Of a DNA stretch of 64,000 bases, positions 12,251-56,792 are shown one piece after another. The position numbers were made by a program, and so were the translations under genes. Positions within the stretch are counted from its first letter, which is position 1, and the number at the start of each line of letters is the position of its first letter. The notes beneath the pieces were generated by a model. The model was given only the letters and a program-made list of their open reading frames with translations. It had not been told where the DNA came from and did no database searches. The DNA is from an uncultured Candidatus Saccharibacteria bacterium. GTDB taxonomy: Bacteria > Patescibacteriota > Minisyncoccia > Phycocordibacterales > UBA12445. Location: contig CAZYTH010000005.1 in NCBI GenBank assembly GCA_964649715.1, forward strand, positions 1,765 to 65,764. Reading direction: 5' to 3'.

Positions 12251-12263
12251 ATTAAAAATTATC

Positions 12264-12280
12264 AATTACGAATTACGAAT
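12264..12280. repeat. Copy of dispersed AT-rich repeat caattacgaattacgaat
   Basis: Seen directly. Same motif at 43142-43160, 43510-43528 (inverted), 49474-49505, 49544-49555 (inverted), 49990-50023 and 58538-58556 (inverted, inside uvrD). Confidence 0.6.
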
Positions 12281-12379
12281 TTTTCAAAAAGAGAATAATG
12301 ATTGTGAGGAAATTATAAAAATAATAGGAAAAATTCGAACAACTGTCAGAGATAATTCTTAATTTTTAATTAAACTAAA

Positions 12380-17752: not shown

Positions 17753-17755
17753 TTG

Positions 17756-17828
17756 TGCGCCCAGCAGGATTCGAACCTGCGACCATTTGCTTAAAAGGCA
17801 ACTGCTCTACCAACTGAGCTATGGGCGC
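17756..17828 (-). tRNA. tRNA-Lys (anticodon UUU)
   Basis: Reverse complement GCGCCCATAGCTCAGTTGGTAGAGCAGTTGCCTTTTAAGCAAATGGTCGCAGGTTCGAATCCTGCTGGGCGCA is near-identical in architecture to E. coli tRNA-Lys. Anticodon loop CTTTTAA. Confidence 0.85.
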
Positions 17829-17891: not shown

Positions 17892-17916
17892 ATGAGCGAG
17901 GTTGAACCTCACTCAT
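17892..17916. repeat. REP-like 25 bp imperfect palindrome atgagcgaggttgaacctcactcat overlapping the RAYT stop codon
   Basis: Seen directly. Related copies at 18395-18419 (reverse complement) and 18627-18651 (direct). Confidence 0.7.
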
Positions 17917-18622
17917 CATTTTGTTCCATAATTAAATCTATGTCTCCATCATTCTTATTGTCCCTAATCCAATCTTCCATTTCTTTTTTATACTTCGCTT
18001 CCCCGCCAAGATAACCACTCATCCATTCTCGCGATGTAACAGATGGAAAATTTTTTATTCCTATATAATCTAAATAGCTACTCCATCTATAGTGATTCAA
18101 TTGTTCTATTTTTTCGGATGGCAATCCCTTGGATTTCTTTATGGGGTTATTGTGTATATAAAAAGGCAACCAACCAAAATGAGCTTCTTTTTTTATGTGG
18201 ACCGCCTTAAATCTTCCCTGAAACAAACCCCCCACTCTCTCATATTTTTGATTAAAATACATAGTATATCCAGTCCCCAGTTTCTGCATAAATTTTACGA
18301 TTCCATTCTCTTGTCTTTGTTTCAAAACCAAATGAAAATGATTGGGCATCAATGTAAAAATAATAACATCAACCAACCTTTTTCTATTCTTCACAAATGA
18401 GTGAGGTTCAACCTCGCTCATTGATCTATTATGTTCAATGTCACGACCTAAATTCTGAACTGGGGAATTATTATTAAATTCATAAAGACAGTGAATAAAT
18501 CTAAGATGGTCCTGCTTATCTAAAAAGATGTTTCTTTTTTCTACACCCCTATTATAAATGTGATAGAATTCATCTTCTATAAATTCCGGTTTTTTCTTTG
18601 CCATAAACAAGAATACTATCAT
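17909..18622 (-). mobile_element. REP-associated tyrosine transposase (RAYT; IS200-like Y1 HUH transposase)
   Basis: EFYHIYNRGVEKRNIFLD N-terminal motif. HUH motif MPNHFHLVL. Catalytic Tyr region GYTMYFNQKYERVGGLFQGRFK. Bracketed by REP palindromes in the RAYT arrangement. Confidence 0.75.
18395..18419. repeat. REP-like palindrome copy inside the RAYT coding sequence (encodes MSEVEPHS in frame)
   Basis: Exact reverse complement of the 17892-17916 copy. Confidence 0.7.
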
Positions 18623-42410: not shown

Positions 42411-43130
42411 ATGCTTGATTTTATATTTAATATCTTTTATTACCCTCTTTATAATGGACTCATATTTCTTACCGCTATTGTTCCTGGAAATGACATTGGT
42501 ATTGCTATTATATTTTTAACGATATTCACGAAGGTTGCTATACTCCCTCTTTCTCATAGTTCCATAAAAACGCAGAAAAAAATGAAAGAAATAGAGCCTC
42601 ATATAAAAAAGATAAAAGAAGAACACAAAGATGACCAAGAAAAGCAAGCTTTAAAAATAATGAATCTATACAAAGAACATGGAGTGAATCCTTTCTCAAG
42701 TATTTTGATGCTTTTTATACAGCTCCCGATGTTCATTGCTCTTTATTATACCTTTAGCCATGACATAGACATCGCATCTCCCGTAATTTTTTCTTTTAAT
42801 CTTGTTCCACCAGCGATAAACACACTTTTTCTTGGTTTTTTAGAATTATCTAAAAGCAATCTCCTTCTAGCTTTGTTTGTTGGTATTACTCAGTTTATTC
42901 AAACACAACTTTCTGTTCCTAAAATACCAAAAAGCCAAGAAAAAAACCCATCTTTTGCTGATGATTTTGCAAAAAGTATGAATTGGCAGGTTAAATACTT
43001 TCTTCCCTTTTTTATAACTTATATTGCTAGTAAACTAAACGCAGGTGTTTCCTTGTTTTGGATAACGAGTAATCTTTTTGGAATAGCGCACGAGCTGTTT
43101 GTGAAGAAAAAAGCGGAAGATCTAAAATAA
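42411..43130 (+). CDS. yidC: Membrane protein insertase YidC (short form)
   Basis: Multi-TM 239 aa protein with the conserved YidC core (...VNPFSSILMLFIQLPMFIALYYTF...). Canonical rpmH-rnpA-yidC order. Confidence 0.8.
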   Translation: MLDFIFNIFYYPLYNGLIFLTAIVPGNDIGIAIIFLTIFTKVAILPLSHSSIKTQKKMKEIEPHIKKIKEEHKDDQEKQALKIMNLYKEHGVNPFSSILMLFIQLPMFIALYYTFSHDIDIASPVIFSFNLVPPAINTLFLGFLELSKSNLLLALFVGITQFIQTQLSVPKIPKSQEKNPSFADDFAKSMNWQVKYFLPFFITYIASKLNAGVSLFWITSNLFGIAHELFVKKKAEDLK

Positions 43131-43141
43131 ATTAGAAATTG

Positions 43142-43160
43142 CCAATTACGAATTACGAAT
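43142..43160. repeat. Left arm of perfect 19 bp inverted repeat ccaattacgaattacgaat flanking the four-helix-bundle gene
   Basis: Reverse complement is found at 43510-43528. Confidence 0.75.
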
Positions 43161-43518
43161 GAAGGAAAATATTATTCAAAAGAAGAGTTACGATTTTGCA
43201 TTAAAAATAGTCGGTATATATCAAAATTTAGTAAAAAACAACAAAGAATTTGTTCTTTCGAAGCAATTACTGAGAAGCGGAACCTCAATCGGTGCTAATA
43301 TTGAAGAGGCAATCGGAGCTCAATCTAGAAAAGATTTTTATTCAAAGCTCAGTATAGCCTATAAAGAAGCAAGGGAAACCAAATATTGGGTAAGAATACT
43401 TTGTGATAGCGACATGTTGTCTACCAATGAGGCTGGTTTGTTGTTGAATGATCTCGAAGAGATACTAAAAATCATAGGAAAAATTCAAAAAACCGTTAAA
43501 GATGGTTTTAATTCGTAA
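43159..43518 (+). CDS. Four-helix-bundle protein (23S rRNA intervening-sequence protein / DGR Avd-like family)
   Basis: 119 aa. KKSYDFALKIVGIY ... SGTSIGANIEEA ... KDFYSKLSIAYKEARETKYWV matches the TIGR02436-type four-helix-bundle family. Confidence 0.7.
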   Translation: MKENIIQKKSYDFALKIVGIYQNLVKNNKEFVLSKQLLRSGTSIGANIEEAIGAQSRKDFYSKLSIAYKEARETKYWVRILCDSDMLSTNEAGLLLNDLEEILKIIGKIQKTVKDGFNS

Positions 43519-43528
43519 TTCGTAATTG
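43510..43528. repeat. Right arm (attcgtaattcgtaattgg) of the 19 bp inverted repeat
   Basis: Perfect reverse complement of 43142-43160. Confidence 0.75.
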
Positions 43529-43540
43529 GTAATTTCTAAT

Positions 43541-44830
43541 TTATTTCAGCTTCACGACCCAAGCAGTGCCGTCTTTTTTGTTTATGAATGCAAAAAAGTC
43601 TTCGTTTTCGCTTAAAATTGGTTCTATAATATCTATCTCTACTCCCCCTAGCTTCTCTTTGTCTATAATTATCCTAGCGGTAGCACTGCTGGTGTCTATT
43701 TGCCAAATTGTATCTGAGAAAGATGAGATTCCCTGATACCATGATTCGGGATATTTTGAACCTAATACTACATTAGGAACTCCACAATAAATTATATTTT
43801 CATCACCTTTACTAAAGACGCATTTTTCAGGAAGAGTTTTTAAAGGGAAAGAATTGGTTGCACCATCCACTTGATTAAAAAAGTATGTCATAAAACCTGT
43901 CCCTACGGTTTCGGAATAGATAACGTTATTATTTTTTGGGCTTATTTTTGTAGTAAGGCCAGAAATATCCCCGATAACCTTTTGGAAATTATTTGTTCCG
44001 TTCACAGATAAAGAATAAAGTTGCCCTAAGGCAGAAGAAGAAGGTTTTGTCGCCAAGGAAATTATTTTGTCTGATTCCCAAGACACACTCCACTCTTTAA
44101 GAGGAGAACTCCATATTTGAGTTTTCGGACTAGAAAGTGGGTCTGAATTAAATTCTCCTATAGTACCAACCACAGAGCCTCCATTGTTTATTAAGTAAAA
44201 TACTTTGTCTTTGTCTGGAGAAACAGCGAAACCAAGTGTATTTGAAGGAAGAATGGTTCCGTTTAGTTTGCCTACACCTGACTCAACAGTTACCTCTGTT
44301 TCAGAAGATGGTTCTATTGTGCCATATATCGTTTGAAGGATGTTGTTTATTCCCTCAAGTCTTCTTAATATTAAATTCTGGCCGTTTTTCCCCCACGAAG
44401 TATCTACTATCCCCGTGATAGTTGTGTTTGTTATTTTTGTTGGAATATTTTCACTAAAAGACATATCTTTTATGTGTCCTGTTCCTTTCTCTATAAAACG
44501 AAGCGAAGGCTCTCCTTCGTTTTTGTTCACAAAAGTTATTCCTGCCACAGAGACACTTGTCATTTTTTTAATACTGCCAGGAATTCTTGTTTCATAGTCG
44601 TCTATTGTTTGATCGTTCTGATTTATAAAATCTGAACTTTCATTTTTTGTTGTATTTCCGTTTATTTTTCCGCTACTTGGAAAATAGTTCGTGTCTTCAT
44701 TTGTCGGCGGTTGAGGTTCTCCTGAAGAAGGAAATTGTTCCCCTCTTTGAAGATACCAAACAGTCCCTCCTACAGAGGCAACTATTAAAAGAGAAATTAT
44801 TACCACAAAGATAGTTGTCCTTTTGTTCAT
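43541..44830 (-). CDS. Membrane-anchored extracytoplasmic hypothetical protein
   Basis: Likely start MNKRTTIFVVIISLLIVASVGG (one TM), then a Ser/Thr/Gly/Asn-rich beta-rich domain. The upstream His/Gln-rich extension in the ORF track is probably non-coding. Confidence 0.45.
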   Translation of the reverse strand: MNKRTTIFVVIISLLIVASVGGTVWYLQRGEQFPSSGEPQPPTNEDTNYFPSSGKINGNTTKNESSDFINQNDQTIDDYETRIPGSIKKMTSVSVAGITFVNKNEGEPSLRFIEKGTGHIKDMSFSENIPTKITNTTITGIVDTSWGKNGQNLILRRLEGINNILQTIYGTIEPSSETEVTVESGVGKLNGTILPSNTLGFAVSPDKDKVFYLINNGGSVVGTIGEFNSDPLSSPKTQIWSSPLKEWSVSWESDKIISLATKPSSSALGQLYSLSVNGTNNFQKVIGDISGLTTKISPKNNNVIYSETVGTGFMTYFFNQVDGATNSFPLKTLPEKCVFSKGDENIIYCGVPNVVLGSKYPESWYQGISSFSDTIWQIDTSSATARIIIDKEKLGGVEIDIIEPILSENEDFFAFINKKDGTAWVVKLK

Positions 44831-44849
44831 CTTTTTAAATTTTAATTTA

Positions 44850-45305
44850 TTAAAAAGCACCAGTACTCCCTCCACCTGCAGGTGCTCCTGGTGTTGGTTG
44901 TGGATTTGATGTTCCTGGTGTTGTGGCTGTTTCACAATTAGCATCTGACGCACTTAAATCCATCTTAACCAAATTAGGATTTACTGTATTTAAGATAAGA
45001 TAGCCTGTAAGAGCTATAACAAGCCCTATTATTGCGTTGGTGATTCTTTCTTTTGCCTTGCCTTTATTACTATCACTTGCCCACGATGTAGTGTACTCAA
45101 CTCCTCCTATGACTATCATTAGTATTGCAGACAAAACAGCAAAGCCAAGAGCATACCAATAGATAGCTTGTATGTATTTACCTGGGTTTGTGACTGTCTC
45201 CCCTGTAAACCCTTTTATCGGTTCCAGAAGCTTATATGATGATTGAGCAAGAGAAAAAGATGTCGGTATTGTCATTAGGATTGAAAATAAAAAAAGTTTT
45301 GTCAT
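44850..45305 (-). CDS. Putative type IV secretion pilin-like protein (VirB2/TrbC-like topology)
   Basis: 151 aa. Signal peptide plus two hydrophobic helices (YWYALGFAVLSAILMIVIGG and AIIGLVIALTGYLILN). Gly/Pro-rich tail. Located in the type IV secretion-like cluster. Confidence 0.4.
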   Translation of the reverse strand: MTKLFLFSILMTIPTSFSLAQSSYKLLEPIKGFTGETVTNPGKYIQAIYWYALGFAVLSAILMIVIGGVEYTTSWASDSNKGKAKERITNAIIGLVIALTGYLILNTVNPNLVKMDLSASDANCETATTPGTSNPQPTPGAPAGGGSTGAF

Positions 45306-45315
45306 TTTTTTGACA

Positions 45316-46320
45316 TTAAAATTTAAATAAATTCGGTGACGATTTTACCATAAGGGAATTGTTCGTCGACTGGAACAACCTTTTTATGTTTTTTATTGAA
45401 ACGTTTATTAAGGATGTTGTTTCCTCTGAAGACTCGCTTCTTAGTGTTATTATTTTTGGTGTTCCTTCGTTTGGGGTTATGCCTTTTTCATTCATTGTCC
45501 AAGTGAACTCAAGATTTTTGTCGGTCGGTGTGTCGGGGTAAGAGAAGAAATAAGGTTCAGCTCTTATGTTAATCTCTCTTTCAGATAAATTTGTTTGTAG
45601 GTTTAAGGCATTTAGATAGTTTGTCCCATCGGCTGGCTTGTCTTCGTAAAAAATTATTAAAGGTTCTTCTGGCTTTATTTTTATTTCTTTTTCCGCCACA
45701 ATATCTCCTTTGGAATTTGTTGCAATAACAGAGACTTTGGTATCACCAAAAGGACTTCCCATTGTAATCTTTTCGCTAGTTTTTCCATATCCCTTGCTTA
45801 TTCTTGATGAGTTTGCAAACCATTCATAGGTAAGATCATCAGGTGAAATCCTTGTGCCTTTTTCCGATAGGAAAAAAGGGACAGCAACAACTTTTACAGT
45901 GCTTTTTGGGGATGCGCCAGCCTTTCCCTTGTAAAGTGGTGGAACATAGGTATCTGCTTCCCACACAATATCAACATCAGCAGGATTTACAGACATTGTT
46001 TTTTCGATTTCTTTTCCATCTCCTTTAAAAACCCCACGGACGACAGTGTTTGAGCCGTTTTTTCCCGTTTGAAAAGAAAATTCTTTTCTGCCAACCCCCT
46101 CTTTCTCAAGTGAGCCGTTAATGTACCAATAAATATGAGCGTTATTGAGGTCCATTTCGTAACTTATGGCACTTACTTTTACATTCGTGAAACTTCCCGG
46201 ATTTTTTGGAGTAATGTTAAAGCCCACTTCACCTCCAATACTCCTGTTTACAACTAAGGCGTTTGAAAAGAATGGAACGAGGGCAAATATTATTGATGCT
46301 ATTTTTATATATTTTTTCAT
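45316..46320 (-). CDS. Secreted hypothetical protein (signal peptide, 334 aa)
   Basis: MKKYIKIASIIFALVPFFSNA signal peptide. Beta-rich composition. Confidence 0.45.
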   Translation of the reverse strand: MKKYIKIASIIFALVPFFSNALVVNRSIGGEVGFNITPKNPGSFTNVKVSAISYEMDLNNAHIYWYINGSLEKEGVGRKEFSFQTGKNGSNTVVRGVFKGDGKEIEKTMSVNPADVDIVWEADTYVPPLYKGKAGASPKSTVKVVAVPFFLSEKGTRISPDDLTYEWFANSSRISKGYGKTSEKITMGSPFGDTKVSVIATNSKGDIVAEKEIKIKPEEPLIIFYEDKPADGTNYLNALNLQTNLSEREINIRAEPYFFSYPDTPTDKNLEFTWTMNEKGITPNEGTPKIITLRSESSEETTSLINVSIKNIKRLFQSTNNSLMVKSSPNLFKF

Positions 46321-46371
46321 ATACCCTCTTAAATTTTAATAATAAAACTTTTAAATTATCTGTTTCAAAGA

Positions 46372-46965
46372 TTAAGCTGTTTCTGTTTGAAGGTTTGTTT
46401 CTGGGATTTCGTTTGTTTGCGTTTGTGGAACTCGTGAAAGTGAATTTTCGTATTGAGGATAACCACTTACGGCCCCAAGTGCCCTGTTTGCCCACATTTT
46501 TTGATTTACGCTTAGATTTGAACCTGCTATTTTTCCGCCTAGTTTACCTGAGATCGCCCCTGTTAAACTACTACCTCTTTCATAATTTAATTTTGCCCGA
46601 TATATCATAAATGTCCATGTGGGGAGAATACTTCCAACTATTGGTATCGTCTCTACAAACCAGCTTATCATCAGTGTGACAAAAAACTTAGCTCCAAGTC
46701 CTTTGTTTGACCAAATAATTGCCCACATAACGAAAGTTAACCCTGCAAATATATTTAAGGTAATTGTAGCCCCCCCAAGAAGAAAGAAATCAACGATCAA
46801 ACAAAGAAAACCGCAAAAATCAAAAAAATAGGATGCCAGGAAAAGAAGAACCCAATCTCCTTTATTCATTTTGCCTTTTGATTCGTTCATTATCCCTAAT
46901 TTATTAACTTTTTGGTTCTCATTCCCACCCCCGATTAAGATGACATCCACAAATTTATAAACCAA
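46372..46965 (-). CDS. Multi-pass membrane protein, type IV secretion-associated by context
   Basis: Four or more hydrophobic helices. Gly-rich C-terminal region. Function unknown. Confidence 0.4.
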   Translation of the reverse strand: MVYKFVDVILIGGGNENQKVNKLGIMNESKGKMNKGDWVLLFLASYFFDFCGFLCLIVDFFLLGGATITLNIFAGLTFVMWAIIWSNKGLGAKFFVTLMISWFVETIPIVGSILPTWTFMIYRAKLNYERGSSLTGAISGKLGGKIAGSNLSVNQKMWANRALGAVSGYPQYENSLSRVPQTQTNEIPETNLQTETA

Positions 46966-46980
46966 ACTTGATAACTCGTC

Positions 46981-48780
46981 TTACTCACTTGCCTTCAACT
47001 CCGCTTTTGCCTTCTTTATCGCCAGAAGTTGTGATGGATCGGATGTAATGATTTGATCCTCTGTATAAGAAGAAATGACTTTAATCGCCACGTGTTTAAG
47101 ACCAGCAAAGAATATCCCCTCCCCGACATTTGATTCAAGCAAGAGATATTTTTCTTCATCTGTTAGGTTGAAAGTTTTTTTGACTATATCTATTGAAGCT
47201 GGTGATTGTTTGAAAAGTATTTGCATTGAAGAGTTGGTAATAATAGGGACTCCGTATGGAGATTCAAGAAAATCTTTCACGTCCTGGGTTATTGTGGTAA
47301 GACCAAGGAAATATTTTCTTCCTCTTTTTGCAAGACTGAAAAGGAAAGATGCTGTGTCGGGGGATTTCATCATCCACCACGCCTCATCTATAATAAGCAT
47401 TCTTTTTCTAAGTTCTCTTCTTACTGATCCCCAGATATTATTCATGACAATATGCATTGCTACCGGTTTTAGTTCATCTTCCATATCCCTAACTGAAAAA
47501 ACGACAAATTTTTTGTTTATATCAACGTTTGTTGGTCTGTTTAAAAATCCTGCCCATGTTCCTTGTGTGAATTTTAGAAGTCTTTGTGCAAGAGAAGCTC
47601 CTCCTTCCATTCCAGCCAATACCAGCTCTAAGTCGGAAAGAAGCGGAGGTGTGGTGCCTGAAAAATCACTGTCGGCTGTTATGTCTTTGAGCGCGTATGT
47701 TTCCCTTATCGCATTATCCATTATCGCATCTTCTTCGGGCGTCATACCAGAAAGCATTATTCGAAAGAGACCGACAAGGTTTATGATATGGGAACGTAGT
47801 ACATCGGAAGATGATTCGTCTTCTCTCACAAATGGCAGGTCAAAAGGATTTATGTGGTGTTCTGATGTTAAAGAAATATTGAAATATCTTCCACCCACCG
47901 CTTCTGCCAGGAATTCATACTCCCTCTCAGGGTCAATAACAATAACATCAACATCAAACATAAGCGATCTAAGTATTTCAAGTTTTGTGAAATAAGATTT
48001 TCCTGATCCTGACTTTGCAAAAATTACGGAATTGTAGTTTTCCAGAGAGAATCTATCAAAAAGTATTAAACCTGAATTGTGTCTGTTTATTCCATAAAGG
48101 ATTCCTTTGTTTGATGTGAGGTCAAAAGAAATAAATGGAAAAACGCTAGATAATGGAGAGGAGTTTAGTTTCGTGTTTACTTGAAGCCTGTCTGACGCTA
48201 TCGGAATTACACTATTGAATCCTTCTTCTTGCTGAAAAAGAGCGGGTTTTATATAAACAAGACGAGATTCCATCATTGTTTTCACTTCTGCTTCTACTTT
48301 ATTCAATTCCTCTTCGTTACTTGCGTATAGCGTTATATAAAGCCCGACATCAAATATTTTTTCTCTTGCTTGTTGGAGTAGGTCTCGGAGAGTTTCAATA
48401 TCTTGAAAAGCTGTATCTAAGATAGGGTCTCTTACCATACCCTTTGCCTCGTTTGCGTGTATTTGGCTCTGTACTTCAGCCAGTTTTTTCTGGAGTTGTC
48501 TCAAAACAAGAGAGGTATCTATCGGATGAATGATTACAGAAACATCAAATATTTTGTCTAAATTTATTATCGGAGAGAACCAATTTTCGGAAAGAAAACG
48601 AGGATAAGAAATAACATAAAATGTTCTAGCCACTTTCTCCCCTATTTTTATGTTGTTTGATCCAACCTCAAGAGCAGATGGAGAGATGACATCCCTTAAC
48701 TCTAAAACTCCGCTTGAATAAATATCTTGTGGTAAGATGGCTTCTATTTTATTATCTTTATTTTTTCCAAAAAAATCCAT
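46981..48780 (-). CDS. Type IV secretion ATPase VirB4/TrbE/TraE family, ATPase part (599 aa)
   Basis: Walker A IFAKSGSGKSYFTK. Walker B MLIIDEAWWMM. Conserved VirB4 middle region (...ILPQDIYSSGVLELRD...FYVISYPRF...). Confidence 0.8.
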   Translation of the reverse strand: MDFFGKNKDNKIEAILPQDIYSSGVLELRDVISPSALEVGSNNIKIGEKVARTFYVISYPRFLSENWFSPIINLDKIFDVSVIIHPIDTSLVLRQLQKKLAEVQSQIHANEAKGMVRDPILDTAFQDIETLRDLLQQAREKIFDVGLYITLYASNEEELNKVEAEVKTMMESRLVYIKPALFQQEEGFNSVIPIASDRLQVNTKLNSSPLSSVFPFISFDLTSNKGILYGINRHNSGLILFDRFSLENYNSVIFAKSGSGKSYFTKLEILRSLMFDVDVIVIDPEREYEFLAEAVGGRYFNISLTSEHHINPFDLPFVREDESSSDVLRSHIINLVGLFRIMLSGMTPEEDAIMDNAIRETYALKDITADSDFSGTTPPLLSDLELVLAGMEGGASLAQRLLKFTQGTWAGFLNRPTNVDINKKFVVFSVRDMEDELKPVAMHIVMNNIWGSVRRELRKRMLIIDEAWWMMKSPDTASFLFSLAKRGRKYFLGLTTITQDVKDFLESPYGVPIITNSSMQILFKQSPASIDIVKKTFNLTDEEKYLLLESNVGEGIFFAGLKHVAIKVISSYTEDQIITSDPSQLLAIKKAKAELKASE

Positions 48781-48819
48781 GTTTCAAAATTAAAATTTAA
48801 AAATCAAAAGGTTATAAAA

Positions 48820-49467
48820 TTATACCTTGGGAACACCGCCTTGTTCATCGGGATTGAATATTTTGTAAAATAGTTCTATCAACTCCTCTGTTCCTAAAGG
48901 GACCGATCTTACACCGCTTCTACTTAATCCTTGTGTAACAACGCTAACTCTTTGCTCTATCTGTGTCCTGTTTTCTTCGAAAGTAAGTAATTCTTGCCTT
49001 TTTTCTTCTCTTGAATCTTTTCCTCCACCAAAGATGCTGAAGATTTTAGAAGAAGCTCCGCTTGCAGATTGCATCACAGGTGGTGAATATGGAACGACAA
49101 CATAGAAAGATTTTTCCATTATGTTTACTCCTTCTGTAAAACCCCTGATGAAATTTATATATTCTCTTAATTGTATTTTGAGAAGCTCGCTTGGTTGAGA
49201 GCTCATTTTTTCTGACATTGAAGATAGATATGGTCTTATGTCCAATCTTCTTGATTGGATTAGTATTTGAACGGTAAAATCAAGTGAGTTAAGGAAGTTT
49301 TGGTATTGCATTATTATCGCTTGTTGTTCGTCGGATGATTTGAGAGCGAAGTTCAGTGAAGAGCACATAAATATCATAAGCATAGTTCCATCTTTCAGGA
49401 CGACTATCCCATCTCTTATTTCTTTTATTGGAACGAAATCTTGTGTGCTTTTATTATTATCGGCCAT
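48820..49467 (-). CDS. Separate ORF encoding a VirB4-type N-terminal domain (215 aa)
   Basis: IPIKEIRDGIVVLKDGTMLMIFMCSSLNFALKSSDEQQAIIMQYQNFLNSLDF matches the N-terminal domain of Gram-positive-type VirB4/TraE proteins. Lies 39 nt upstream of the ATPase ORF on the same strand. Confidence 0.6.
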   Translation of the reverse strand: MADNNKSTQDFVPIKEIRDGIVVLKDGTMLMIFMCSSLNFALKSSDEQQAIIMQYQNFLNSLDFTVQILIQSRRLDIRPYLSSMSEKMSSQPSELLKIQLREYINFIRGFTEGVNIMEKSFYVVVPYSPPVMQSASGASSKIFSIFGGGKDSREEKRQELLTFEENRTQIEQRVSVVTQGLSRSGVRSVPLGTEELIELFYKIFNPDEQGGVPKV

Positions 49468-49473
49468 ATATTC

Positions 49474-49555
49474 AATTACGAATTTTTAATTACTAATTAC
49501 GAATTAAACTTTTTCTTTTCTTTATTTTATCATCAATCATTATTAATTCGTAATT
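49474..49555. repeat. Cluster of aattacgaat-family repeats (two direct, one inverted) in the spacer between the VirB4 N-domain ORF and the PrgI-like gene
   Basis: caattacgaat 49474-49484, ctaattacgaatt 49493-49505, aattcgtaatta 49544-49555. Confidence 0.6.
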
Positions 49556-49982
49556 ATTTTATTTTCTCCTGTATATCTAAACTCCATGCGATGTCTTTAA
49601 GTTTGCCTGATGTAAGTTTTGGCGTTGCGGTCTTTGGTGATGACGCTTTCCCTATAAGTTGATCAAGGTCGTCAGCTTCTTTTTTTATAACCGTTGCTTC
49701 TTTTTTCCAGAGGTATCTCTTTCCCGAAAGGGTGAAGCTAAACCACGCTTGGACTATGTCTATAAACGGTCTATCGTTCACTTTATAGTAAGCCAGAGCA
49801 ACAGCAAATGCGATAAAAGGAAGAACGATTATATATGATATAGATCCAATATACGGTTCAAGTATTCTGTACAGCCCATAACCACCACCAAAACCACCCA
49901 AAAGATAAAGGAATTGTTTGAAGGTGAAAGGTCCTACGACCTTATCCTCTACTTCTATGAATTGTGGGACTTGGAACTGCAT
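49554..49982 (-). CDS. PrgI-family protein (VirB3-like type IV secretion component)
   Basis: MQFQVPQFIEVEDKVVGPFTFKQFLYLLGG N-terminus typical of the PrgI family, followed by two TM helices. Confidence 0.6.
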   Translation of the reverse strand: MQFQVPQFIEVEDKVVGPFTFKQFLYLLGGFGGGYGLYRILEPYIGSISYIIVLPFIAFAVALAYYKVNDRPFIDIVQAWFSFTLSGKRYLWKKEATVIKKEADDLDQLIGKASSPKTATPKLTSGKLKDIAWSLDIQEKIK

Positions 49983-49989
49983 ATATAAT

Positions 49990-50061
49990 CAATTATGAAT
50001 TAATAATTACGAATTACGAATTTTCTTGTACCATTGCTTTATATTTCCTGCCTGCCGGCAG
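49990..50061. repeat. Spacer containing both repeat families: aattatgaattaataattacgaattacgaat (49990-50023) and cctgcctgccggcag (50047-50061)
   Basis: Seen directly. Confidence 0.6.
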
Positions 50062-50084
50062 TTCGTTTTTTTTGTTCTACGCTT

Positions 50085-50762
50085 TTACATCATTTCCCTA
50101 TAGGGATCTGGTGCAATTCCTCCTCCTCCCACCCTTACATCTGTCTCTGTTTTTGGTATTTCTGTCGGTTCGTTTATCTTCTTCTCTAAAATATCCATTC
50201 CGCTAGTTGCTTGAAATCCGAGAATGCTCGTGTCTTGTTTTTTTGTTTCGGTTATTTTGCCTTCTAAGATATCCATCGTTTTTCTGGGCACATTTAAACT
50301 CTCTCTTTCTACTTTTTTCATAATGTTTGATTGTGTCTCTGTCTTCTCTCCTACTGTAAAAACTTTTTGTCCTGCGTGTATGGCTCGCAAAGATTCCTTA
50401 ACTTTGGCGAATATTTTTTCGTTTATTTCCATAACGATATTGCTTGCTTTATTTTTGTCTATACCGAGTCTGGCTACTATACTGCCAACAAATTCCATTG
50501 GGTCGGATACTCCGAGAAGGACAAGTCCTGTCTCCTGCCCTAAAATTGCTGTTTGGTCGACGTGGAGATTGTATTTCTTGCTTGTTTCAAATATCGCTTC
50601 GGCTGAATCAACAGAAGCTATGGCGTCTTTCAGATCTTCGGGCAAGTTATCAAAAATATCGTTCAGCTTATTCCTGTCGTGATTTAAAACAGGCCCACCT
50701 TTATTTAAGGCGATAGTCGGTCCTGATTTGTAAATATTTAATTCATCGTTTTTGAGAATCAT
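50085..50762 (-). CDS. Hypothetical protein (225 aa), type IV secretion locus
   Basis: Coherent ORF. No motifs recognised. Confidence 0.4.
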   Translation of the reverse strand: MILKNDELNIYKSGPTIALNKGGPVLNHDRNKLNDIFDNLPEDLKDAIASVDSAEAIFETSKKYNLHVDQTAILGQETGLVLLGVSDPMEFVGSIVARLGIDKNKASNIVMEINEKIFAKVKESLRAIHAGQKVFTVGEKTETQSNIMKKVERESLNVPRKTMDILEGKITETKKQDTSILGFQATSGMDILEKKINEPTEIPKTETDVRVGGGGIAPDPYREMM

Positions 50763-53291
50763 TTATGGATTGTTTATTATTGATTCTAATTCTGCCACCT
50801 TTGTTCTTAATTCATCCCTTTTTGAAATAAGAGATGGATCTGATCCGCCAGCGACAATAAGATCAGATTCGGCTTTGGTAAGCTGTCTTTTTGTGTCTGG
50901 AAGATTTTTTCTCGCCTCTATTTTATCTGCCATCTTTTTCCTACCTACTTCTTTAAGTTTTTTCAAATCATCCTTGTCAAATGCTTCTGCAGCCTCATCT
51001 GTATCTAGTATCGAGTCCTCTAATTCGGCAGCATTCTTAGCACTCATGGATTTTAGGGCTTTAATTTTCTTATCTTTCGTGTCATAAGAATTCCAATTTC
51101 CTTGAACAACATCCAACTCTACGTGTTTTCTCCCTCTGTAGTTTCTTTCGTTTGAATGAACTGTATTCTTAAGTGCAATTAACTGATCTGGTTTAAGATT
51201 GCCTTTTTCTTCTAAAGCCTTGATTTGGGCCTCGTCAAGCCACTGTGCTATTTTCCCGTTGTTTTCCATCAGTTTCTTTATACCAAGATCAAGTATTTTG
51301 TCACCCCTGAACAGTGAAAGACCTTCTCTGATTTCTTTTTCTATTCCCTTTTTTGCATTATCCAAATTTCCGTTATGCTTTTCGTCAGCATATTCTTTAA
51401 ATTCTTTTCTTGCTTTTTCCTCGGCTTTGACTAATCCCAGATTATTATCTCTTGCATAATTATCTTTTTGTTCTTGCGTCATATTATCCCAGTCGACCAA
51501 ACTAGAAACTCTTTGCATTTCTTTTTTCTTTTGTTCTATTTCCTGTTTCGCTTTATACGCTTTTTCGGCTTTTTCTCCTGCTTCTCTTTCACCTTTTGTT
51601 TCCATAATTTCAAAACCTGTTCCGGTTTTTACTAGTTCGGAAATTGTTGAACCAGGAGAAGTGACTTTTTCTTTGATTGATTCTCCAAGCATTCCAGCTT
51701 TCGTGCTTATTTTTTCAGCAACGGGTTTGCCTATATTTTTACTCCAATCATTTTGGATATTTGCCCAAGCACCTGATGTGACTCTGCCTTCTTTATCTTT
51801 TACCTCTTCATCTCTATCTCTTATGCCCCTATAAACACTTCTTGCCGAACCTGCACCCACCATAGCCGCACCAGTTGCAAGACCAATAGTCGCGCCTGTG
51901 GCCCATTTGCCGAATTTTTCAGCACCTGACGCGCCAGTGGCTCCCATCTTTTTTGCCATTATGATTGAGGAGAATAGGAAGCCCAAGATTATTATGTGGG
52001 AAAAAATAGTATCAACAGAACCACCCAAGATAGGTATTTTCCAACCTTTATTTATTGATGATATTAAATCACCACAGACAATAAGTTTCATTGTTATGTA
52101 TATTCCAAGCATAAAGGCTGGAGCGAAAAACGCCTGATTGATGAGATTTTCCCAATAACCGCTACTTATTTTTCCTGAAATAGACTTGGGGGCGACCATT
52201 GCTATCCACGGAAGCGGAGACAGTATAAGTGCAATAATTAGACTTATAATTCTCACAATAAAAAGTGCAGAGGCAAAAAACAACACAAAAAGGAAAACAA
52301 TCATAAAGACGGTGGTCATTAGTGCATTTATAGAGATGGCTCCAACAGAGGGAACATCTTTTAACTCAGAGTCTCCTTTTTCCGCAGCAGCCTGACCTGA
52401 TGCAAGTTGTTGTTTTAAGCTTAGTCTCTCTATAAATACGCTAGTAAGATTGCCATTTGGTCCACCTCGTGCTTTGTCGTAGAAATACACAGCAAAAACG
52501 TTTGAAACATCTATTATGATGCCTGTTATTGCCATGCTAAAATTTATCATAACAACAGCGAATATTAGTGTGCTGATCATTTTTTTCCAATTTACACTGT
52601 CAAGACTTAAAATTGTTCCAATCGCAATATACATCATAATCATGAGGGCAAACATATTTACGAGGTCCCTCAACACTTTCCATGCAGATATAACCACATC
52701 CTTTTGTGCAAAACTAGCCATTTCGTTTATTGAGACCTCGACCACAAAGGTGAAAATTTCTGATACAACCCACGTTACCCCAGAAAGTATGTAGAGGAAA
52801 AAGCCCAAGATTCTGGCAAAAGCTTCTCGAAGACAAGCCATTGAAAACGACCCTTCTCCAAACCAGCCTGGTTCGCAGGTGTCTGGCAATTTACCCCCAG
52901 AAGAGACTATTGCCTTTTTTGCTTTCAGTAATTCATCTATTTCAGCTATTCTTTCGTCAATACCTCCACGAGCTCTAACTTTTAAATCCAAGTCAACTCT
53001 TTCTTCTTTTAATTTATCAATCTCTTTTTGAATAGTAGCCTTCTGTAATTTCTCTGTAATTTCTTGTTGCTTCTTTTTTATTTCATCCTTTTCTTTTATT
53101 AATTCATCTCTCTTTTTTTCATTGGATGTTATCTGACTCTTTGCTGTTACAACCTCTTCTCCAGCACTTGTATCTATATAAACATCTGCGCTTACAAAAT
53201 TTGAGCTTAAAGAGAGCAAAAGCAATAAAAACAAAACAGCAAAAGACGTTGATGCTATTTTCTTTATTTTATTGTTTCCGAAAAAGTTCAT
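50763..53291 (-). CDS. VirB6-like polytopic membrane protein with N- and C-terminal coiled-coil extensions (842 aa)
   Basis: Signal/TM at the N-terminus. At least six hydrophobic helices centrally (for example VFMIVFLFVLFFASALFIVRIISLIIALILSPLPWIAMVAP). Long charged coiled-coil regions. Position next to PrgI and VirB4. Confidence 0.55.
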   Translation of the reverse strand: MNFFGNNKIKKIASTSFAVLFLLLLLSLSSNFVSADVYIDTSAGEEVVTAKSQITSNEKKRDELIKEKDEIKKKQQEITEKLQKATIQKEIDKLKEERVDLDLKVRARGGIDERIAEIDELLKAKKAIVSSGGKLPDTCEPGWFGEGSFSMACLREAFARILGFFLYILSGVTWVVSEIFTFVVEVSINEMASFAQKDVVISAWKVLRDLVNMFALMIMMYIAIGTILSLDSVNWKKMISTLIFAVVMINFSMAITGIIIDVSNVFAVYFYDKARGGPNGNLTSVFIERLSLKQQLASGQAAAEKGDSELKDVPSVGAISINALMTTVFMIVFLFVLFFASALFIVRIISLIIALILSPLPWIAMVAPKSISGKISSGYWENLINQAFFAPAFMLGIYITMKLIVCGDLISSINKGWKIPILGGSVDTIFSHIIILGFLFSSIIMAKKMGATGASGAEKFGKWATGATIGLATGAAMVGAGSARSVYRGIRDRDEEVKDKEGRVTSGAWANIQNDWSKNIGKPVAEKISTKAGMLGESIKEKVTSPGSTISELVKTGTGFEIMETKGEREAGEKAEKAYKAKQEIEQKKKEMQRVSSLVDWDNMTQEQKDNYARDNNLGLVKAEEKARKEFKEYADEKHNGNLDNAKKGIEKEIREGLSLFRGDKILDLGIKKLMENNGKIAQWLDEAQIKALEEKGNLKPDQLIALKNTVHSNERNYRGRKHVELDVVQGNWNSYDTKDKKIKALKSMSAKNAAELEDSILDTDEAAEAFDKDDLKKLKEVGRKKMADKIEARKNLPDTKRQLTKAESDLIVAGGSDPSLISKRDELRTKVAELESIINNP

Positions 53292-53294
53292 TTT

Positions 53295-55964
53295 TTATGG
53301 CAAAAGATTTATTGTTGTAAACTTTGAGATTTGTTCTCCCGCTTCGTTTATGCAACTCATTCTATATGTATAGTTTCTGTCAAAGGTGCCCGTTGTTCTT
53401 TTTATGGTTAAGGTGTCGCCAGATGAACTCACTGTATATTTTTTAAATTCTTCTTTTTTGATGTGGTCGGTCTCACTGGTGATAGCCACCCAGAGTCTGT
53501 TTACAATATCTGATCCATCGGGTGTTTCGTCGGTTAAGTTCGCTTGGATATTTAAACTATAACCATTAAGAGTTAGAAATATTGAGTCGTTTGCACTAAG
53601 TCCAGTGATATTTGGTTTGTAGGTGAGGGTCTGTGTTAAGGTGTTCTGACCTATTGTAAATGTATTAGTAGGGATTTGCACTATTGTTCCACCTTCACCA
53701 CTTGCACTTATTTCATATGTAAATATTGAAGGGTGATAGATATCAAAGGTGCCAATTATATTGCTTTCAAAATCCTCATCTTTTTGTATGAGTATTGTTT
53801 TTGTGGTGGAGGCGATATGTTTTCCATTTTCTAAGGTGCTCCATGTCGGCCAGTCCGTCTTGGTCATGCAAGAAATACTGTTTTCGGCCTCATAAAATAT
53901 TTCCGTCTTTTTTATTCCGTTTTTTAGGTCTTCGGTATTGCTTTCAATTTTTAACGTTGGTGCTTCTGGTTCATAATATATTTCTTCGTCACCATAAGAT
54001 TGATCTGGCTCGTCATTGTCAGCACCCGAAAGTCCTGAAAAAAGTTGACTTAAGTAGGAGAGCCAATCTGTGCCACCACTTGTGCCACCAGCACTTCCAC
54101 CACCTCCAGAGGTAGCACCCCCTCCTCCGCCAGATGTTTGTCCGCCACTTGTTTCCATTGTTACTCCCGAGACAGATGAACCACCGCTTCCACTAGATAA
54201 TGGAGAGACACCATCCTTTCTTTTGTCTTCTTCGCTCTCATCAGTGTTTAGAGTTACGTGTATTGGTGCGTCATTCAGAAGAGACGCTCTGTCGGCGACT
54301 AGTTTTGCGGCAATCAATATGGATTCATCGGTGCAGTGTTTTTTGCCATCATATTCAAAAGAATTTATGCATTCAGTCACCGCTGTTATCCCCCCAAATG
54401 GAGCCCAAGTTTGTTCCGCTCGACTCTTATATTCTTCTTCAAATTTATTCTTTATGTCTAAATTAATAAAGAATTGTCCTGGTCCATTGTTTCTGGAATC
54501 AGCTATTTCAAATAAATTACTAAAATTTTGAGATGGGTCTTGGGGAGGATTTTGGATAGAAGCTTTTGTGTCGATGGTAGGTTTTGTTGAGGCCAGATAG
54601 AAAGCTTCTTCATCTTTTTTTATTTCCACCTGTTCCCCAATGGCTTGGGCAATGAGTGTTTTATTTCCTTCGGGTATTTGGGATTTATTTGAATCTAGGA
54701 GATATAATAAAAGGTTGTTGGCAACTTCTTTTGACTCTTGAACCCATTCTTTTAGGGTCACAACCATATTTTTTGTTGGCCCTTGACCTATATCGTTTGA
54801 AGGAGTTCTTCCCTCTTTCATGAATTTTTGATAGTCATCTCTTTCTTTTTTTATGGCCTCCCTTGCCTCTTTAGCTGCTTCTGGATCGTCCTCCCTCTCC
54901 TTCTTTAGAAGGTCTTTTTGTATCGCTAAGATTTTTTCTGTATCCTCGCATATTTTTTGGGTAATGTGTCTGGTTTGTGTGGTCATATTTGCGAGTTGTT
55001 TGGTATAACCAAGAAGAGCTCCTGCTTGCTCTATTACGGGAACACCGTTACTCCCGCTGTCTCCTTGCGAATTTTGTGAGTTATTGCAGACGTTTTGTCC
55101 TGTTTCTTGTCCGTCTTTGATAATATTGTTGTTTTCACTCATTTGTTCAGAAGCACTGTTTACTGTTTCAACGGACTTAACCCCTTGTCCGCCTGCTCCT
55201 ACAACTTCTGCCATCATTCCGCTAGCTCCAGCGCTTGCTCCTGTAATTTGGGATGGAACTCTGTTGCTGTTTGCAAAACCTCCAAGTACGCCCTGAAGAG
55301 AGGAGGCTGAATTCATTATTCCGTTTCCCATCCCAGAAATCATCCCAATTCCCTGTTTGAATTCTGAGGGAATTGTAAAGCCAACCAAACTACCCACTCT
55401 TTCTAGCGTTTGTATTATTTGGGCAGGATTTGCATCTCCCTTACCAAGATTTTTGATGTCGTCAATTAACCCCAAAACAGCTGGAATTTTTCCCACTGTA
55501 TTCATTAAACCGTACACACTTTCAGCTTTATTTATTTGGCCTAAAGTATTATCGATTTTTTCAAATGTTTGTTTTTCTGCTGTGCTAAGCTGGTCGAGTG
55601 CTTCTCGCGCTTTTCTTTTTTTGTCTGCTATTCCTGGTATGTCATAATCAAATAATTTATCAGGACCGTTTATTATTGTTTCGAGCCCTGTCTTTGTAAC
55701 TTCAAATCCTTGTTTTGCAGTAACTCTAACGTTTTTATCTAAATACTCTTTTATTTTTGTTGTGGAGCTTAAATCAATACCAGCATTTTTCCCAGCATTT
55801 AAATAACCTTCTATCGTGCTTGTGTCATAGCCGAAGCTTTTTGCTGCGGATAATATTGAATTGGTATTGTAAGCAAATGTAAAAAGTGGGAAAAGAAAAG
55901 ATATGAACAATATCAGAACAACTGTGAGTCTTATTTTTCTAATTTTTAAAATTCCCCTTTTCAT
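53295..55964 (-). CDS. Large secreted protein (889 aa) with Gly-rich linker, type IV secretion-associated
   Basis: N-terminal TM/signal. Helical N-terminal half. SGGGGGATSGGGGSAGGTSGG linker. Beta-rich C-terminal domain. Candidate surface or adhesin component. Confidence 0.45.
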   Translation of the reverse strand: MKRGILKIRKIRLTVVLILFISFLFPLFTFAYNTNSILSAAKSFGYDTSTIEGYLNAGKNAGIDLSSTTKIKEYLDKNVRVTAKQGFEVTKTGLETIINGPDKLFDYDIPGIADKKRKAREALDQLSTAEKQTFEKIDNTLGQINKAESVYGLMNTVGKIPAVLGLIDDIKNLGKGDANPAQIIQTLERVGSLVGFTIPSEFKQGIGMISGMGNGIMNSASSLQGVLGGFANSNRVPSQITGASAGASGMMAEVVGAGGQGVKSVETVNSASEQMSENNNIIKDGQETGQNVCNNSQNSQGDSGSNGVPVIEQAGALLGYTKQLANMTTQTRHITQKICEDTEKILAIQKDLLKKEREDDPEAAKEAREAIKKERDDYQKFMKEGRTPSNDIGQGPTKNMVVTLKEWVQESKEVANNLLLYLLDSNKSQIPEGNKTLIAQAIGEQVEIKKDEEAFYLASTKPTIDTKASIQNPPQDPSQNFSNLFEIADSRNNGPGQFFINLDIKNKFEEEYKSRAEQTWAPFGGITAVTECINSFEYDGKKHCTDESILIAAKLVADRASLLNDAPIHVTLNTDESEEDKRKDGVSPLSSGSGGSSVSGVTMETSGGQTSGGGGGATSGGGGSAGGTSGGTDWLSYLSQLFSGLSGADNDEPDQSYGDEEIYYEPEAPTLKIESNTEDLKNGIKKTEIFYEAENSISCMTKTDWPTWSTLENGKHIASTTKTILIQKDEDFESNIIGTFDIYHPSIFTYEISASGEGGTIVQIPTNTFTIGQNTLTQTLTYKPNITGLSANDSIFLTLNGYSLNIQANLTDETPDGSDIVNRLWVAITSETDHIKKEEFKKYTVSSSGDTLTIKRTTGTFDRNYTYRMSCINEAGEQISKFTTINLLP

Positions 55965-56792
55965 TTATTTTATCAAATTTATATACAAATTGATTTGTTC
56001 TTCCGGGCCGAATTCTATCTTTTTTTCAGAAAAGAATTTGTTGATCTGGTTTATATTTAAAACAAGTTCATCCGTTTCCCTCTTGAAGTCGTTTACGGTT
56101 GCGATTACGGTATCTGGACTTTCGAGTGCAAGGGATAACAATAGGTCTATATATGATATTTTTGCGCAATTATTCACCAGTTTTAAATGTTGTGATGATA
56201 TTTCGTTTGGAACTTGCATTCCCAAGAGGGTTTCTGCAACGACTTTATGAAGCTCGCTCATAATTCTTATTTTTTCAAAGTCTTGAGAGTTGCCTGTTTG
56301 TATAGCCTGCATCACGAGATAACCTTCGTTTGGGAGGTTTGTTAGGGAGTAGGGTTTTAATGCTGTAACAAGGTCTTTTGCATACTTTTTGTAAACAGCA
56401 TCGTTTTTATCGTAAACGATGTTAAGATTAGAGAATTTATAGGAAATAAAACCCTTTTTGGTGACTGAGTTTGATATTGAAGCAGTATTATCTGACGTTT
56501 GCCTTGTGTAGGTTGGCTCGCTTTTTTTTGTTGTTTCTTCTTCTTCCTCTTCTATCCAATGCCATTTATTTGTCGTTTCTTGATCGTTTTCTTTAGATAA
56601 TGATGTATTTTCCCTTGAGAAAACAAGTACATTTCCCCTTTTTTCAATTTTTTCTATCGCGTCCACCTCTTTATCTATTGCTATGTTTTTGTCTGCAGTT
56701 CCATTTTCAGAAAAGACAAACCACGCTCCAAACAAAAGGAGAATTATTCCTGCTCTCTTCGCAAATTTGTTACTTGGTAGATATTCCATCAA
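55965..56792 (-). CDS. Membrane-anchored hypothetical protein (275 aa)
   Basis: One N-terminal TM (AGIILLLFGAWFVF), then an acidic stretch EEEEEE. Confidence 0.4.
   Translation of the reverse strand: MMEYLPSNKFAKRAGIILLLFGAWFVFSENGTADKNIAIDKEVDAIEKIEKRGNVLVFSRENTSLSKENDQETTNKWHWIEEEEEETTKKSEPTYTRQTSDNTASISNSVTKKGFISYKFSNLNIVYDKNDAVYKKYAKDLVTALKPYSLTNLPNEGYLVMQAIQTGNSQDFEKIRIMSELHKVVAETLLGMQVPNEISSQHLKLVNNCAKISYIDLLLSLALESPDTVIATVNDFKRETDELVLNINQINKFFSEKKIEFGPEEQINLYINLIK

Follow-up and report, generated by a model that had tools for sequence, protein, structure and literature searches.

Introduction

A locus in a 64,000-nucleotide (nt) stretch of contig CAZYTH010000005.1, from an uncultured Candidatus Saccharibacteria bacterium (assembly GCA_964649715.1; the whole stretch is called the window below), raises the question of what a gene of a family known from intervening sequences (IVS) of 23S rRNA is doing behind a protein-coding operon, and why it is enclosed there by inverted repeats. 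The gene encodes a four-helix-bundle (4HB) protein of the PF05635/TIGR02436 family and lies with its two repeats at 43131-43540, immediately after yidC. IVS that carry an open reading frame (ORF) of this family, S23p, within 23S rRNA were reportedly described by Ralph & McClelland in 1993, the superfamily also includes Avd, the accessory protein of diversity-generating retroelements (DGRs), and outside DGRs we know of no function assigned to the family in 30 years.

The anatomy of the locus, a census of 80 homologous loci and the distribution of the repeat lead us to view it, with moderate confidence, as a cassette of the IVS type and as the coding member of a dispersed family of heptamer arrays, organised much as repetitive extragenic palindromic (REP) sequences are with their REP-associated tyrosine transposases (RAYTs). 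Processing of the cassette transcript and binding of the arrays by the protein are parts of this reading that we infer.

Results

The inserted cassette proper (43131-43540, + strand, 410 nt) is made up of a left array, the 4HB ORF and a right array, has the termini ATTAGAAATT...AATTTCTAAT, and fills exactly the interval between the stop codon of yidC and that of a convergent downstream gene; its GC content is 31%, against 36% for the window. The left arm (43122-43163, +) is an array of five 7-nt units (AAATTAG AAATTGC CAATTAC GAATTAC GAATGAA), the last of which contains the start codon (ATG at 43159), and its outer 9 nt coincide with the final yidC codons. The right arm (43508-43549, +), composed of (TTCGTAA)-type units, reaches back into the ORF to 11 nt before position 43518, where the stop codon ends, and so holds the final codons of the ORF (N S stop), while its outer 9 nt belong to the convergent gene, whose native end (..KLK stop) they form. 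The overlap of the left arm with the start codon and the start of the right arm ahead of the stop agree with a preliminary description of the locus, but the repeat is not the 19 bp given there. Both 19-nt arms are present, the perfect 19-mer CCAATTACGAATTACGAAT at 43142-43160 (+) and its exact reverse complement at 43511-43529 (one base off the 43510-43528 of that description), but they belong to five-unit arrays that form an inverted repeat of 36 nt with one mismatch (43125-43160 / 43511-43546) or, at full extent, of 42 nt with three mismatches and 93% complementarity (43122-43163 / 43508-43549). Allowing up to three mismatches, the 19-mer has eight matches in the window where 0.01 would be expected, and the 10-mer AATTACGAAT occurs 13 times against an expectation of 0.3. 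When all eight arm copies in the window are aligned each consists of five 7-nt units, AATTACG-like towards the inside and more degenerate towards the outside. The arms of the cassette are 344 nt apart, in AT-rich sequence, with the conserved ORF between them; no promoter-like excess was found in 42900-43800, and a terminator scan detected no terminator-like site in the cassette.

The ORF (43159-43518, +) encodes 119 residues with an isoelectric point of 9.1 and scores far above the cut-offs of both family models (PF05635, E=3e-28, 98.6 bits, cut-off 33.8; TIGR02436, 107.7 bits, cut-off 24), which bears out its earlier assignment to the 4HB superfamily of 23S IVS proteins and Avd. Residues 1-115 match PDB 2RLD (E=6e-31), a Bacteroides thetaiotaomicron protein whose entry has five chains, and PDB 2GSC (Xanthomonas Xcc0516), also with five chains, matches the family profile at E=0.036. 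These two entries suggest that the family is pentameric, and that the window protein would, by homology, be so too; a pentamer is also attributed to the family by Lin et al. 2006, as cited in PMC4990558. The family motif R-x3-S-x3-N-x2-E (PMC3936711) is present as LLRSGTSIGANIEEA, at R39-x3-S43-x3-N47-x2-E50, and conservation across phyla is high, with 44 invariant residues in 15 sequences. The closest homologues, 65-74% identical, are from Flavobacteriaceae and not from Paceibacterota. The family is very large, each of two word-indexed searches returning at least close to 8,000 scored candidates, nearly all significant. A Pfam scan gave no Y1_Tnp match in the protein, and a term search of Anantharaman et al. 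2013, on the HEPN superfamily, gave no mention of the IVS or Avd families.

The architecture of the window locus is common to most of the family. We took a census of 80 loci in named genomes that encode homologues 49-69% identical and span about ten or more phyla (Bacteroidota, Planctomycetota, Verrucomicrobiota, Desulfobacterota, Bacillota, Cyanobacteriota, Acidobacteriota, Chloroflexota, Bdellovibrionota, Paceibacterota and others), aligned the 80-nt upstream flank of each gene to the reverse complement of its downstream flank, and used 270 neighbouring genes from the same loci as controls. An inverted repeat at z>=4 is present in about 60 of the 80 loci. The median score is 35 for 4HB genes and 15 for controls, 80% of the 4HB genes lie above the controls' 95th percentile (Mann-Whitney p=7e-27), and flanking by inverted arrays is enriched approximately 16-fold over neighbouring genes. 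The preliminary description had considered that the repeats might be absent from other copies of the family; inverted repeats occur instead in 80% of the 80 loci. The strongest outliers among the controls were apparent RAYT/REP pairs, and the emergence of transposase-type genes with REP-like flanks as top controls validates the scan. Three such outliers (L022 6584-7201, L090 6628-7203 and L087 2198-2662) have an IS200/RAYT-type look by N-terminal sequence and are flanked by inverted GC-rich REP-like palindromes.

The flanks of 4HB genes have a period of seven, tandem 7-nt units making up nearly every arm. Self-identity at lag 7 is 0.50 upstream and 0.52 downstream of the gene, against 0.26 in control windows, no other lag is raised, and heptamer tracts are found on both sides of the gene in 71% of loci. 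The unit varies from locus to locus (AATTACG, AATTAGG, AATTAAG, AATTACA, AATGAGT, AGTTTTG, AATGCAG, AGTGCGA and others), yet within a cassette one arm mirrors the other, a cassette's own right arm being its best partner among the 80 in 28 loci where about one would be expected by chance. More distant members share this arrangement, the flanks being (AGGTCGG)n / (CCGACCT)n in Nostoc punctiforme pNPUN01 and (TTACCAG)n / (CTGGTCA)13 in Euhalothece. The pNPUN01 gene stands in a neighbourhood rich in mobile elements (L098 62-3342), between a TnsA/Mu-type transposase pair and xisH-xisI with a tyrosine recombinase.

The unit also connects a gene with arrays elsewhere in its genome. In 20 of 57 census loci the cassette's own unit recurs in further arrays outside the cassette, with a mean of 1.67 extra array sites for own units against 0.15 for foreign ones (p=0.001). 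The single 4HB gene of Xanthomonas, Xcc0516, is preceded by GGGAATC GGGAGTG GAGAATC GGGAATC GGCA and followed, in reverse complement, by GGGAATA GGGAGTC GAGAATG GGGAATG GGTA, again five units and in the same order as upstream. Rehm et al. 2015 (PMC4692102) place GGGAATC at approximately 186 sites in X. campestris, including 70 inverted pairs, and describe these arrays as transcribed and mostly situated between co-directional ORFs. A 4HB gene outside rRNA, in a Saprospiraceae genome (L034), is flanked by the heptamer of the Coxiella 23S IVS in the reading ATGACAG. Paralogues within one genome have different units, AATTACG and TTAGAAT in L041, and an AATTAAT-type unit as opposed to 10- and 9-nt units in L048, where a distant paralogue (7226-7600, 25% identical) is flanked by arrays of 10-nt (GGAGTACTTA) and 9-nt (CTTTAGGCA) period. 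The recurrence of this design around the family in many bacterial phyla points to the protein and the dispersed heptamer repeats being parts of a single system.

The arrays themselves were traced by scanning metagenomes with the query AATTACGAATTACGAATGAA, that is (AATTACG)2-ATGAA, which matched at least 120 contigs and gave 127 matches. A 4HB ORF stood at the position of the ATG in none of the 127, and AATTACG-type arrays are on this account a dispersed intergenic repeat in their own right. An inverted partner array accompanies 33 matches, and in 28 of these it stands 11-48 nt from the ATG, making a tight hairpin; a further 17 matches run right up to the start codon of a long, unrelated gene, 74 stand alone and three lie too near a contig end to be classified. 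Arrays of 3, 4, 5, 6, 7, 8 and 10 units number 23, 19, 60, 19, 4, 1 and 1, respectively, a non-geometric distribution that, for this one unit type in an ascertained sample with a minimum of three units, peaks at five (60/127). The approximately 5-kb neighbourhoods of these arrays contain nine 4HB genes per 684 kb. The scan, which returned no 4HB cassettes, moves the emphasis from the terminal inverted repeats of a cassette to a dispersed array family with one coding member, and since the gene is almost always arrayed, arrays are common without the gene and paralogues have units of their own, gene and array resemble a cognate protein-repeat pair of the REP/RAYT kind. The earlier view of a mobile repeat able to carry the gene captured the insertion behaviour described below, but with the gene almost always arrayed it is probably the wrong way round, or incomplete.

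Four further sites in the window hold arrays. At 12245-12371 (+) a decayed second cassette fills the spacer between a Mur-ligase gene and fpg; its left arm (12245-12280, 36 nt) is 92% identical to the intact one; beyond an internal deletion a diverged 4HB gene survives in its last ~24 codons (..NNDCEEIIKIIGKIRTTVRDNS stop), and the right arm is degenerate. A gene-less inverted pair with a spacer of approximately 35 nt (49470-49556) separates a TraC-like gene, whose start codon it abuts, from a PrgI-like gene; relative L097 also has an array at the orthologous site. A solitary five-unit array (49990-50024) abuts the PrgI-like start codon and has no counterpart in L097. A further five-unit array (58536-58569) runs in frame inside a UvrD/PcrA helicase gene (57841-59862, -), where it encodes NYQLSITNYEL. 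The window shows a decay series of intact cassette, internally deleted cassette and gene-less hairpin. The preliminary description had the repeat scattered with no gene attached; dispersed it is, but the copy at 12245-12371 retains part of a 4HB gene.

Several observations accompany these sites. The array-bearing leaders of the TraC-like and PrgI-like genes are 63-nt direct repeats of 76% identity (49466-49528 / 49983-50045), both ending TATAT-ATG when read on the coding strand. The Mur ligase directly upstream of the decayed cassette has its middle and C-terminal domains in separate ORFs approximately 170 nt apart (10921-11763 and 11933-12250, +), which may reflect a frameshift, a pseudogene or an assembly error. 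Another tract of 7-nt period (10110-10135, TTTTATG TTTTATG ATTTAGG ATTTA) precedes ruvA (10233-10841) by approximately 100 nt. A 237-aa ORF (17909-18622, -) next to tRNA-Lys (17755-17828) encodes part of an IS200-like Y1 transposase domain (PF01797, E=3e-7), with no heptamer array near that ORF.

The cassette follows yidC (42411-43130, +; PF02096, E=1e-44), last gene of an rpmH-rnpA-yidC operon, and faces a 470-aa convergent gene (43541-44953, -), the first of a type IV secretion system (T4SS)-like cluster, whose stop codon abuts the right arm. It lies, as previously described, after yidC and outside rRNA, the window having three tRNA genes and, by Rfam, no rRNA. YidC homologues assign the window to a Candidatus Paceibacterota (Parcubacteria) genome. 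Four Paceibacterota relatives with identical gene order (L092, L093, L094/95 and L096; YidC 68-74% identical to that of the window) have no 4HB gene here, and their spacer between yidC and the convergent gene is only 29-60 nt, consisting of a GC-rich hairpin terminator. In the window this hairpin is gone and the spacer measures 410 nt. Given the short, terminator-bearing spacers of these syntenic relatives the 410-bp cassette is best read as an insertion, and together with the Flavobacteriaceae homologues and lower GC content the empty sites make horizontal acquisition the best reading of its origin. The preliminary description had named a terminator shared with yidC as a possible explanation of the repeat, but the terminator of the cassette-less relatives is a different, GC-rich one. 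The ..KLK-stop end of the convergent gene is conserved in these relatives, so the 9 bp at the outer limit of the inverted repeat most likely represent the native ends of the genes and not part of the element. We saw no direct target-site duplication, the flanks AAATAA and TTATTT being the two native gene ends. The inverted repeat, which reaches into both flanking genes (LK-stop on each side), was considered as such a duplication and rejected for the same native ends.

Across the family the gene sits within transcription units. In 68 of 74 loci (92%; binomial p=2e-5 against 0.72) it shares its strand with the upstream neighbour, and in 55 of 69 with the downstream one, with median gaps of 57 nt upstream and 36 nt downstream that are essentially the arrays themselves. 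We found 4HB cassettes in Tenacibaculum between trpD and trpC, in Xanthomonas between accB and accC, and in a metagenome contig beside recA, and such genes are on record between cmr3 and cmr2 (PMC3936711) and in other cas operons (PMC3936711, PMC10910872). Members of the family behave as cassettes, apparently lacking a promoter of their own, that are wedged into operons under transcription. None of the genes beside them is recurrent, the largest other cluster being present in 6 of 81 loci, and hence no transposase, integrase or reverse transcriptase is associated in cis. Homologues were found in only two of 50,697 phage records and in 31 plasmid records, mostly large Nostoc plasmids; with so few, the gene is not primarily one of phages or plasmids. 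An Rfam search of 14 homologous loci found no rRNA, only tRNAs, which lie next to four cassettes (L036 3862-3946, L082 3540-3610, L052 2533-2612 and L069 2180-2261). The tRNA is approximately 45 nt from the 4HB gene in L036 and 390 nt in L082, and in L052 it falls inside an over-long call of the 4HB ORF; tRNA-adjacent 4HB genes recall the rRNA location of the classic IVS.

Folding of the RNA from 43110 to 43560 places a terminal stem in both the minimum free energy and the centroid structure, at -112 kcal/mol against -80 for shuffles (z=-6.5). The cassette transcript is predicted to form a stem of approximately 37-42 bp that isolates the ORF, which upholds the stem proposed in the preliminary description while roughly doubling its 19 bp.

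Other genes of the window include dnaN-dnaA. The T4SS-like cluster (43541-56792, -; 10753-20723 in L097) is long and co-directional, with an order conserved among Paceibacterota relatives, and contains pilin-like, VirB4/TraG-like ATPase, TraC-like and PrgI-like genes besides several large ORFs without a Pfam match. At 3659-8455 (-) lies the gene of a probable giant surface protein, 1598 aa long and containing FG-GAP repeats.

Discussion

These data are consistent with the following mechanism for an IVS-type cassette that is the coding 'master' member of a dispersed array family. The cassette would be transcribed by read-through from the upstream operon, yidC being the likely source. Its arms would pair in the RNA, the stem sequestering the start codon, and would probably be cut by RNase III as in 23S rRNA IVS, leaving the host transcript unharmed; for the window cassette such processing is proposed by analogy. 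The basic, putatively pentameric protein may in turn bind five-unit heptamer arrays, one unit per subunit, a recognition of tandem repeats by a ring protein such as that of TRAP (trp RNA-binding attenuation protein). Neither the cassette nor the arrays are accompanied by a transposase, an integrase or a reverse transcriptase, and the parallel we draw is with REP/RAYT.

Several results weigh against this interpretation. The metagenome scan, with no 4HB ORF behind any of its matches, shows clearly that arrays exist and function, or persist, without the gene in cis, and approximately 20% of census loci are without arrays. Where arrays are present they may be direct rather than inverted, as in L027, L059 and Treponema saccharophilum pTS1, which has (CTCTCCG)n in direct orientation on both sides of the gene (L099, 1395-1950). 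The five-unit mode comes, as stated, from a limited sample, and Rehm et al. (PMC4692102) give four units as the mode in Xanthomonas. Among 196 non-Watson-Crick positions in 60 stems G-U (37) is not in excess over A-C (48; p=0.28), so selection for pairing in the sense RNA is not demonstrated, and the seventh position of every Xcc0516 unit in Xanthomonas is non-complementary, which is easier to reconcile with protein sites than with a perfect stem. The window ORFs scanned yielded no RNase III. Finally, the four relatives used as empty sites, only 68-74% identical in YidC, may all have lost the cassette, a course less parsimonious than a gain in the window lineage.

A broader proposal can be put forward only tentatively, and we consider it possible rather than probable: that PF05635/TIGR02436 proteins in general are the cognate partners of bacterial dispersed heptamer arrays, among them the AATTACG-type arrays, the Xanthomonas GGGAATC repeat and the short tandemly repeated repetitive (STRR)-like repeats of cyanobacteria. 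A pentameric ring would read five units, with a different unit for each paralogue, the gene would reside in the loop of one array hairpin, and the 23S rRNA IVS would be a special case borne by rRNA.

The cassette could instead be a purely selfish insertion of the IVS type, in which the repeat serves only to form an RNase III stem, the protein is self-serving or dispensable, the other arrays are dead derivatives comparable to MITEs (miniature transposable elements with inverted repeats), and the protein has no function on arrays in trans. Much of what we observe would be expected of such an element, namely an architecture like that of the Coxiella and Leptospira IVS, a stable predicted stem, the decay series in the window and the presence or absence of the cassette among relatives, and the Coxiella ORF is decaying and apparently untranslated (PMC4990558). 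We nevertheless think it unlikely. The strong conservation of the protein across phyla, with its 44 invariant residues, speaks against it, and neither the 7-nt periodicity nor the five-unit mode is necessary for a stem, so both count against an explanation by RNA stem only, as does the lack of a wobble bias on the sense strand. Solitary arrays outside hairpins are moreover the majority of the metagenome matches (74/127), often at start codons, and an array has been conserved at its orthologous site in L097.

That heptamer arrays are generic intergenic simple-sequence repeats produced by slippage, perhaps serving as spacers or translation leaders, among which the 4HB gene merely lands or survives, would account for arrays that precede many unrelated genes and occur without 4HB, and heptameric simple-sequence repeats are over-represented in bacteria according to PMC4692102 and PMC4679880. 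This is improbable in view of the approximately 16-fold enrichment of flanking inverted arrays at 4HB genes, the mirroring of units on the two sides, the different units of paralogues in one genome and the enrichment of 4HB genes near arrays (nine in 684 kb). The peak at five units is also unlike the steady fall-off of unconstrained slippage.

We give hardly any weight to the gene being the Avd accessory protein of a DGR, which the preliminary description had raised. Its similarity to the Avd models is weak, 27.2 bits to bAvd (PF22296) and 26.7 bits to NF033474, below the respective cut-offs of 40 and 80; no reverse transcriptase was detected among the 33 window ORFs scanned against Pfam, approximately half of the real genes, nor in L097, and none of the neighbours in the 81 loci recurs. 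Repeats resembling a template repeat and variable repeat (TR/VR) are absent within +/-7 kb, where direct repeats of at least 35 nt are confined to the array family and a single unrelated pair, 39 nt long and low in identity. A strict rRNA IVS is likewise rejected, there being no rRNA in the window or in the 14 homologous loci searched. Without a reverse transcriptase among the scanned ORFs, TR/VR or rRNA the cassette is neither a DGR nor an rRNA IVS. Nor does the cassette match a transposon or MITE, there being no direct target-site duplication and no transposase in cis or recurrent nearby. An ordinary bidirectional terminator, or a chance low-complexity match, can practically be dismissed even though the site lies between convergent genes in an AT-rich genome (36% GC), given arms 344 nt apart around a conserved ORF, eight matches for 0.01 expected, the short GC-rich hairpin used by relatives at the site, the lack of a detectable terminator-like site in the cassette and the same architecture across many phyla.

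S23p ORFs flanked by inverted repeats in 23S rRNA are already known, as are heptamer arrays in Xanthomonas, cyanobacteria and Beggiatoaceae. In the full-text literature searched, which covers few subscription journals, we found neither a link between 4HB/S23p proteins and heptamer repeats nor a description of a gene between mirrored five-unit heptamer arrays outside rRNA, and the novelty of the link is accordingly provisional. That bacterial genomes contain an excess of heptamer tandem repeats is recognised, but has lacked an explanation. Three results, the mirrored flanking arrays, the unit shared with arrays of the same genome and the preference for five units alongside a putatively pentameric protein, tie the 4HB family and this excess together, and both to the classic rRNA intervening sequences. 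The broader proposal above, if correct, would explain the excess of heptameric simple repeats in bacterial intergenic regions and disclose a widespread, horizontally spreading protein-repeat system acting on operon transcripts. The tie between the family and the repeats would also explain why 4HB genes, so far taken for 'associated' genes of trp, accBC and cas operons, are wedged into operons to which they are unrelated. It makes testable predictions on binding of the arrays by the protein, on cleavage by RNase III and on the agreement of units genome by genome.

Comparison with known systems

A close parallel is the 23S rRNA IVS with an S23p ORF, an insertion in helix 25 or 45 of the rRNA known from Leptospira, Coxiella burnetii and Haemophilus, which encodes a protein of the same family as the window cassette. 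The Coxiella IVS is 428 nt long, with a 28-bp terminal inverted-repeat stem that is cut by RNase III, and ahead of its S23p ORF stand tandem heptamers (GACAGAT), two or three of them according to strain (Warrier et al. 2016, PMC4990558). The window cassette resembles it in size (approximately 410 nt), in a long terminal stem (36-42 bp, predicted), in the tandem heptamers placed right before the ORF start and in apparently lacking a promoter of its own, so that it would be transcribed as part of a host RNA. It differs in following a protein-coding operon rather than lying in rRNA, in its unit (AATTACG) and in the dispersal of its arrays without the gene, and RNase III excision, shown for Coxiella, is in the window cassette inferred.

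With MITEs the cassette and its derivatives share terminal inverted repeats, internally deleted copies and intergenic insertion, but not the target-site duplications or the transposase, in cis or recurrent nearby. Avd (bAvd, PDB 4DWL) belongs to the same four-helix-bundle superfamily and is a basic pentameric barrel that binds structured RNA, an RNA stem-loop in DGRs (bioRxiv 10.1101/2023.10.23.563531), whereas the window protein scores below the Avd cut-offs and has no detected reverse transcriptase or TR/VR with it.

For the proposed reading of repeats by a ring there is an analogue in mechanism only. TRAP binds tandem (G/U)AG repeats as a ring homo-oligomer in which repeats equal subunits. 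Here five subunits would meet a modal five units, the binding being hypothetical, and the two folds are unrelated.

In organisation the system is like REP/RAYT (REPtrons/REPINs). In both, inverted copies of a short repeat flank one small gene, further copies are scattered through intergenic regions of the same genome, singly or as hairpin pairs, and paralogues have different cognate repeats. The 4HB protein is however a non-catalytic-looking bundle and not a Y1 (HUH) transposase, and its repeat is a tandem array of 7-nt units and not a palindrome, and no mobility chemistry can be proposed.

The arrays, lastly, fit the known heptamer repeats, which include Xanthomonas GGGAATC and Nostoc GGGGAYT (PMC4692102), cyanobacterial STRR and the TAACTGA of Beggiatoaceae, Cyanobacteria and Bacteroidetes (MacGregor 2015, PMC4679880). 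They share with these a 7-nt period, a small number of units, an intergenic position, mostly between co-directional genes and often a few nt from start codons, a frequent occurrence as inverted pairs, transcription and a patchy distribution across phyla. The two papers propose G-quadruplexes or S1/cold-shock proteins, and term searches of both gave no mention of 4HB proteins. What the present analysis adds to the published Xanthomonas repeats is that the 4HB gene of Xanthomonas is itself flanked by the GGGAATC unit.

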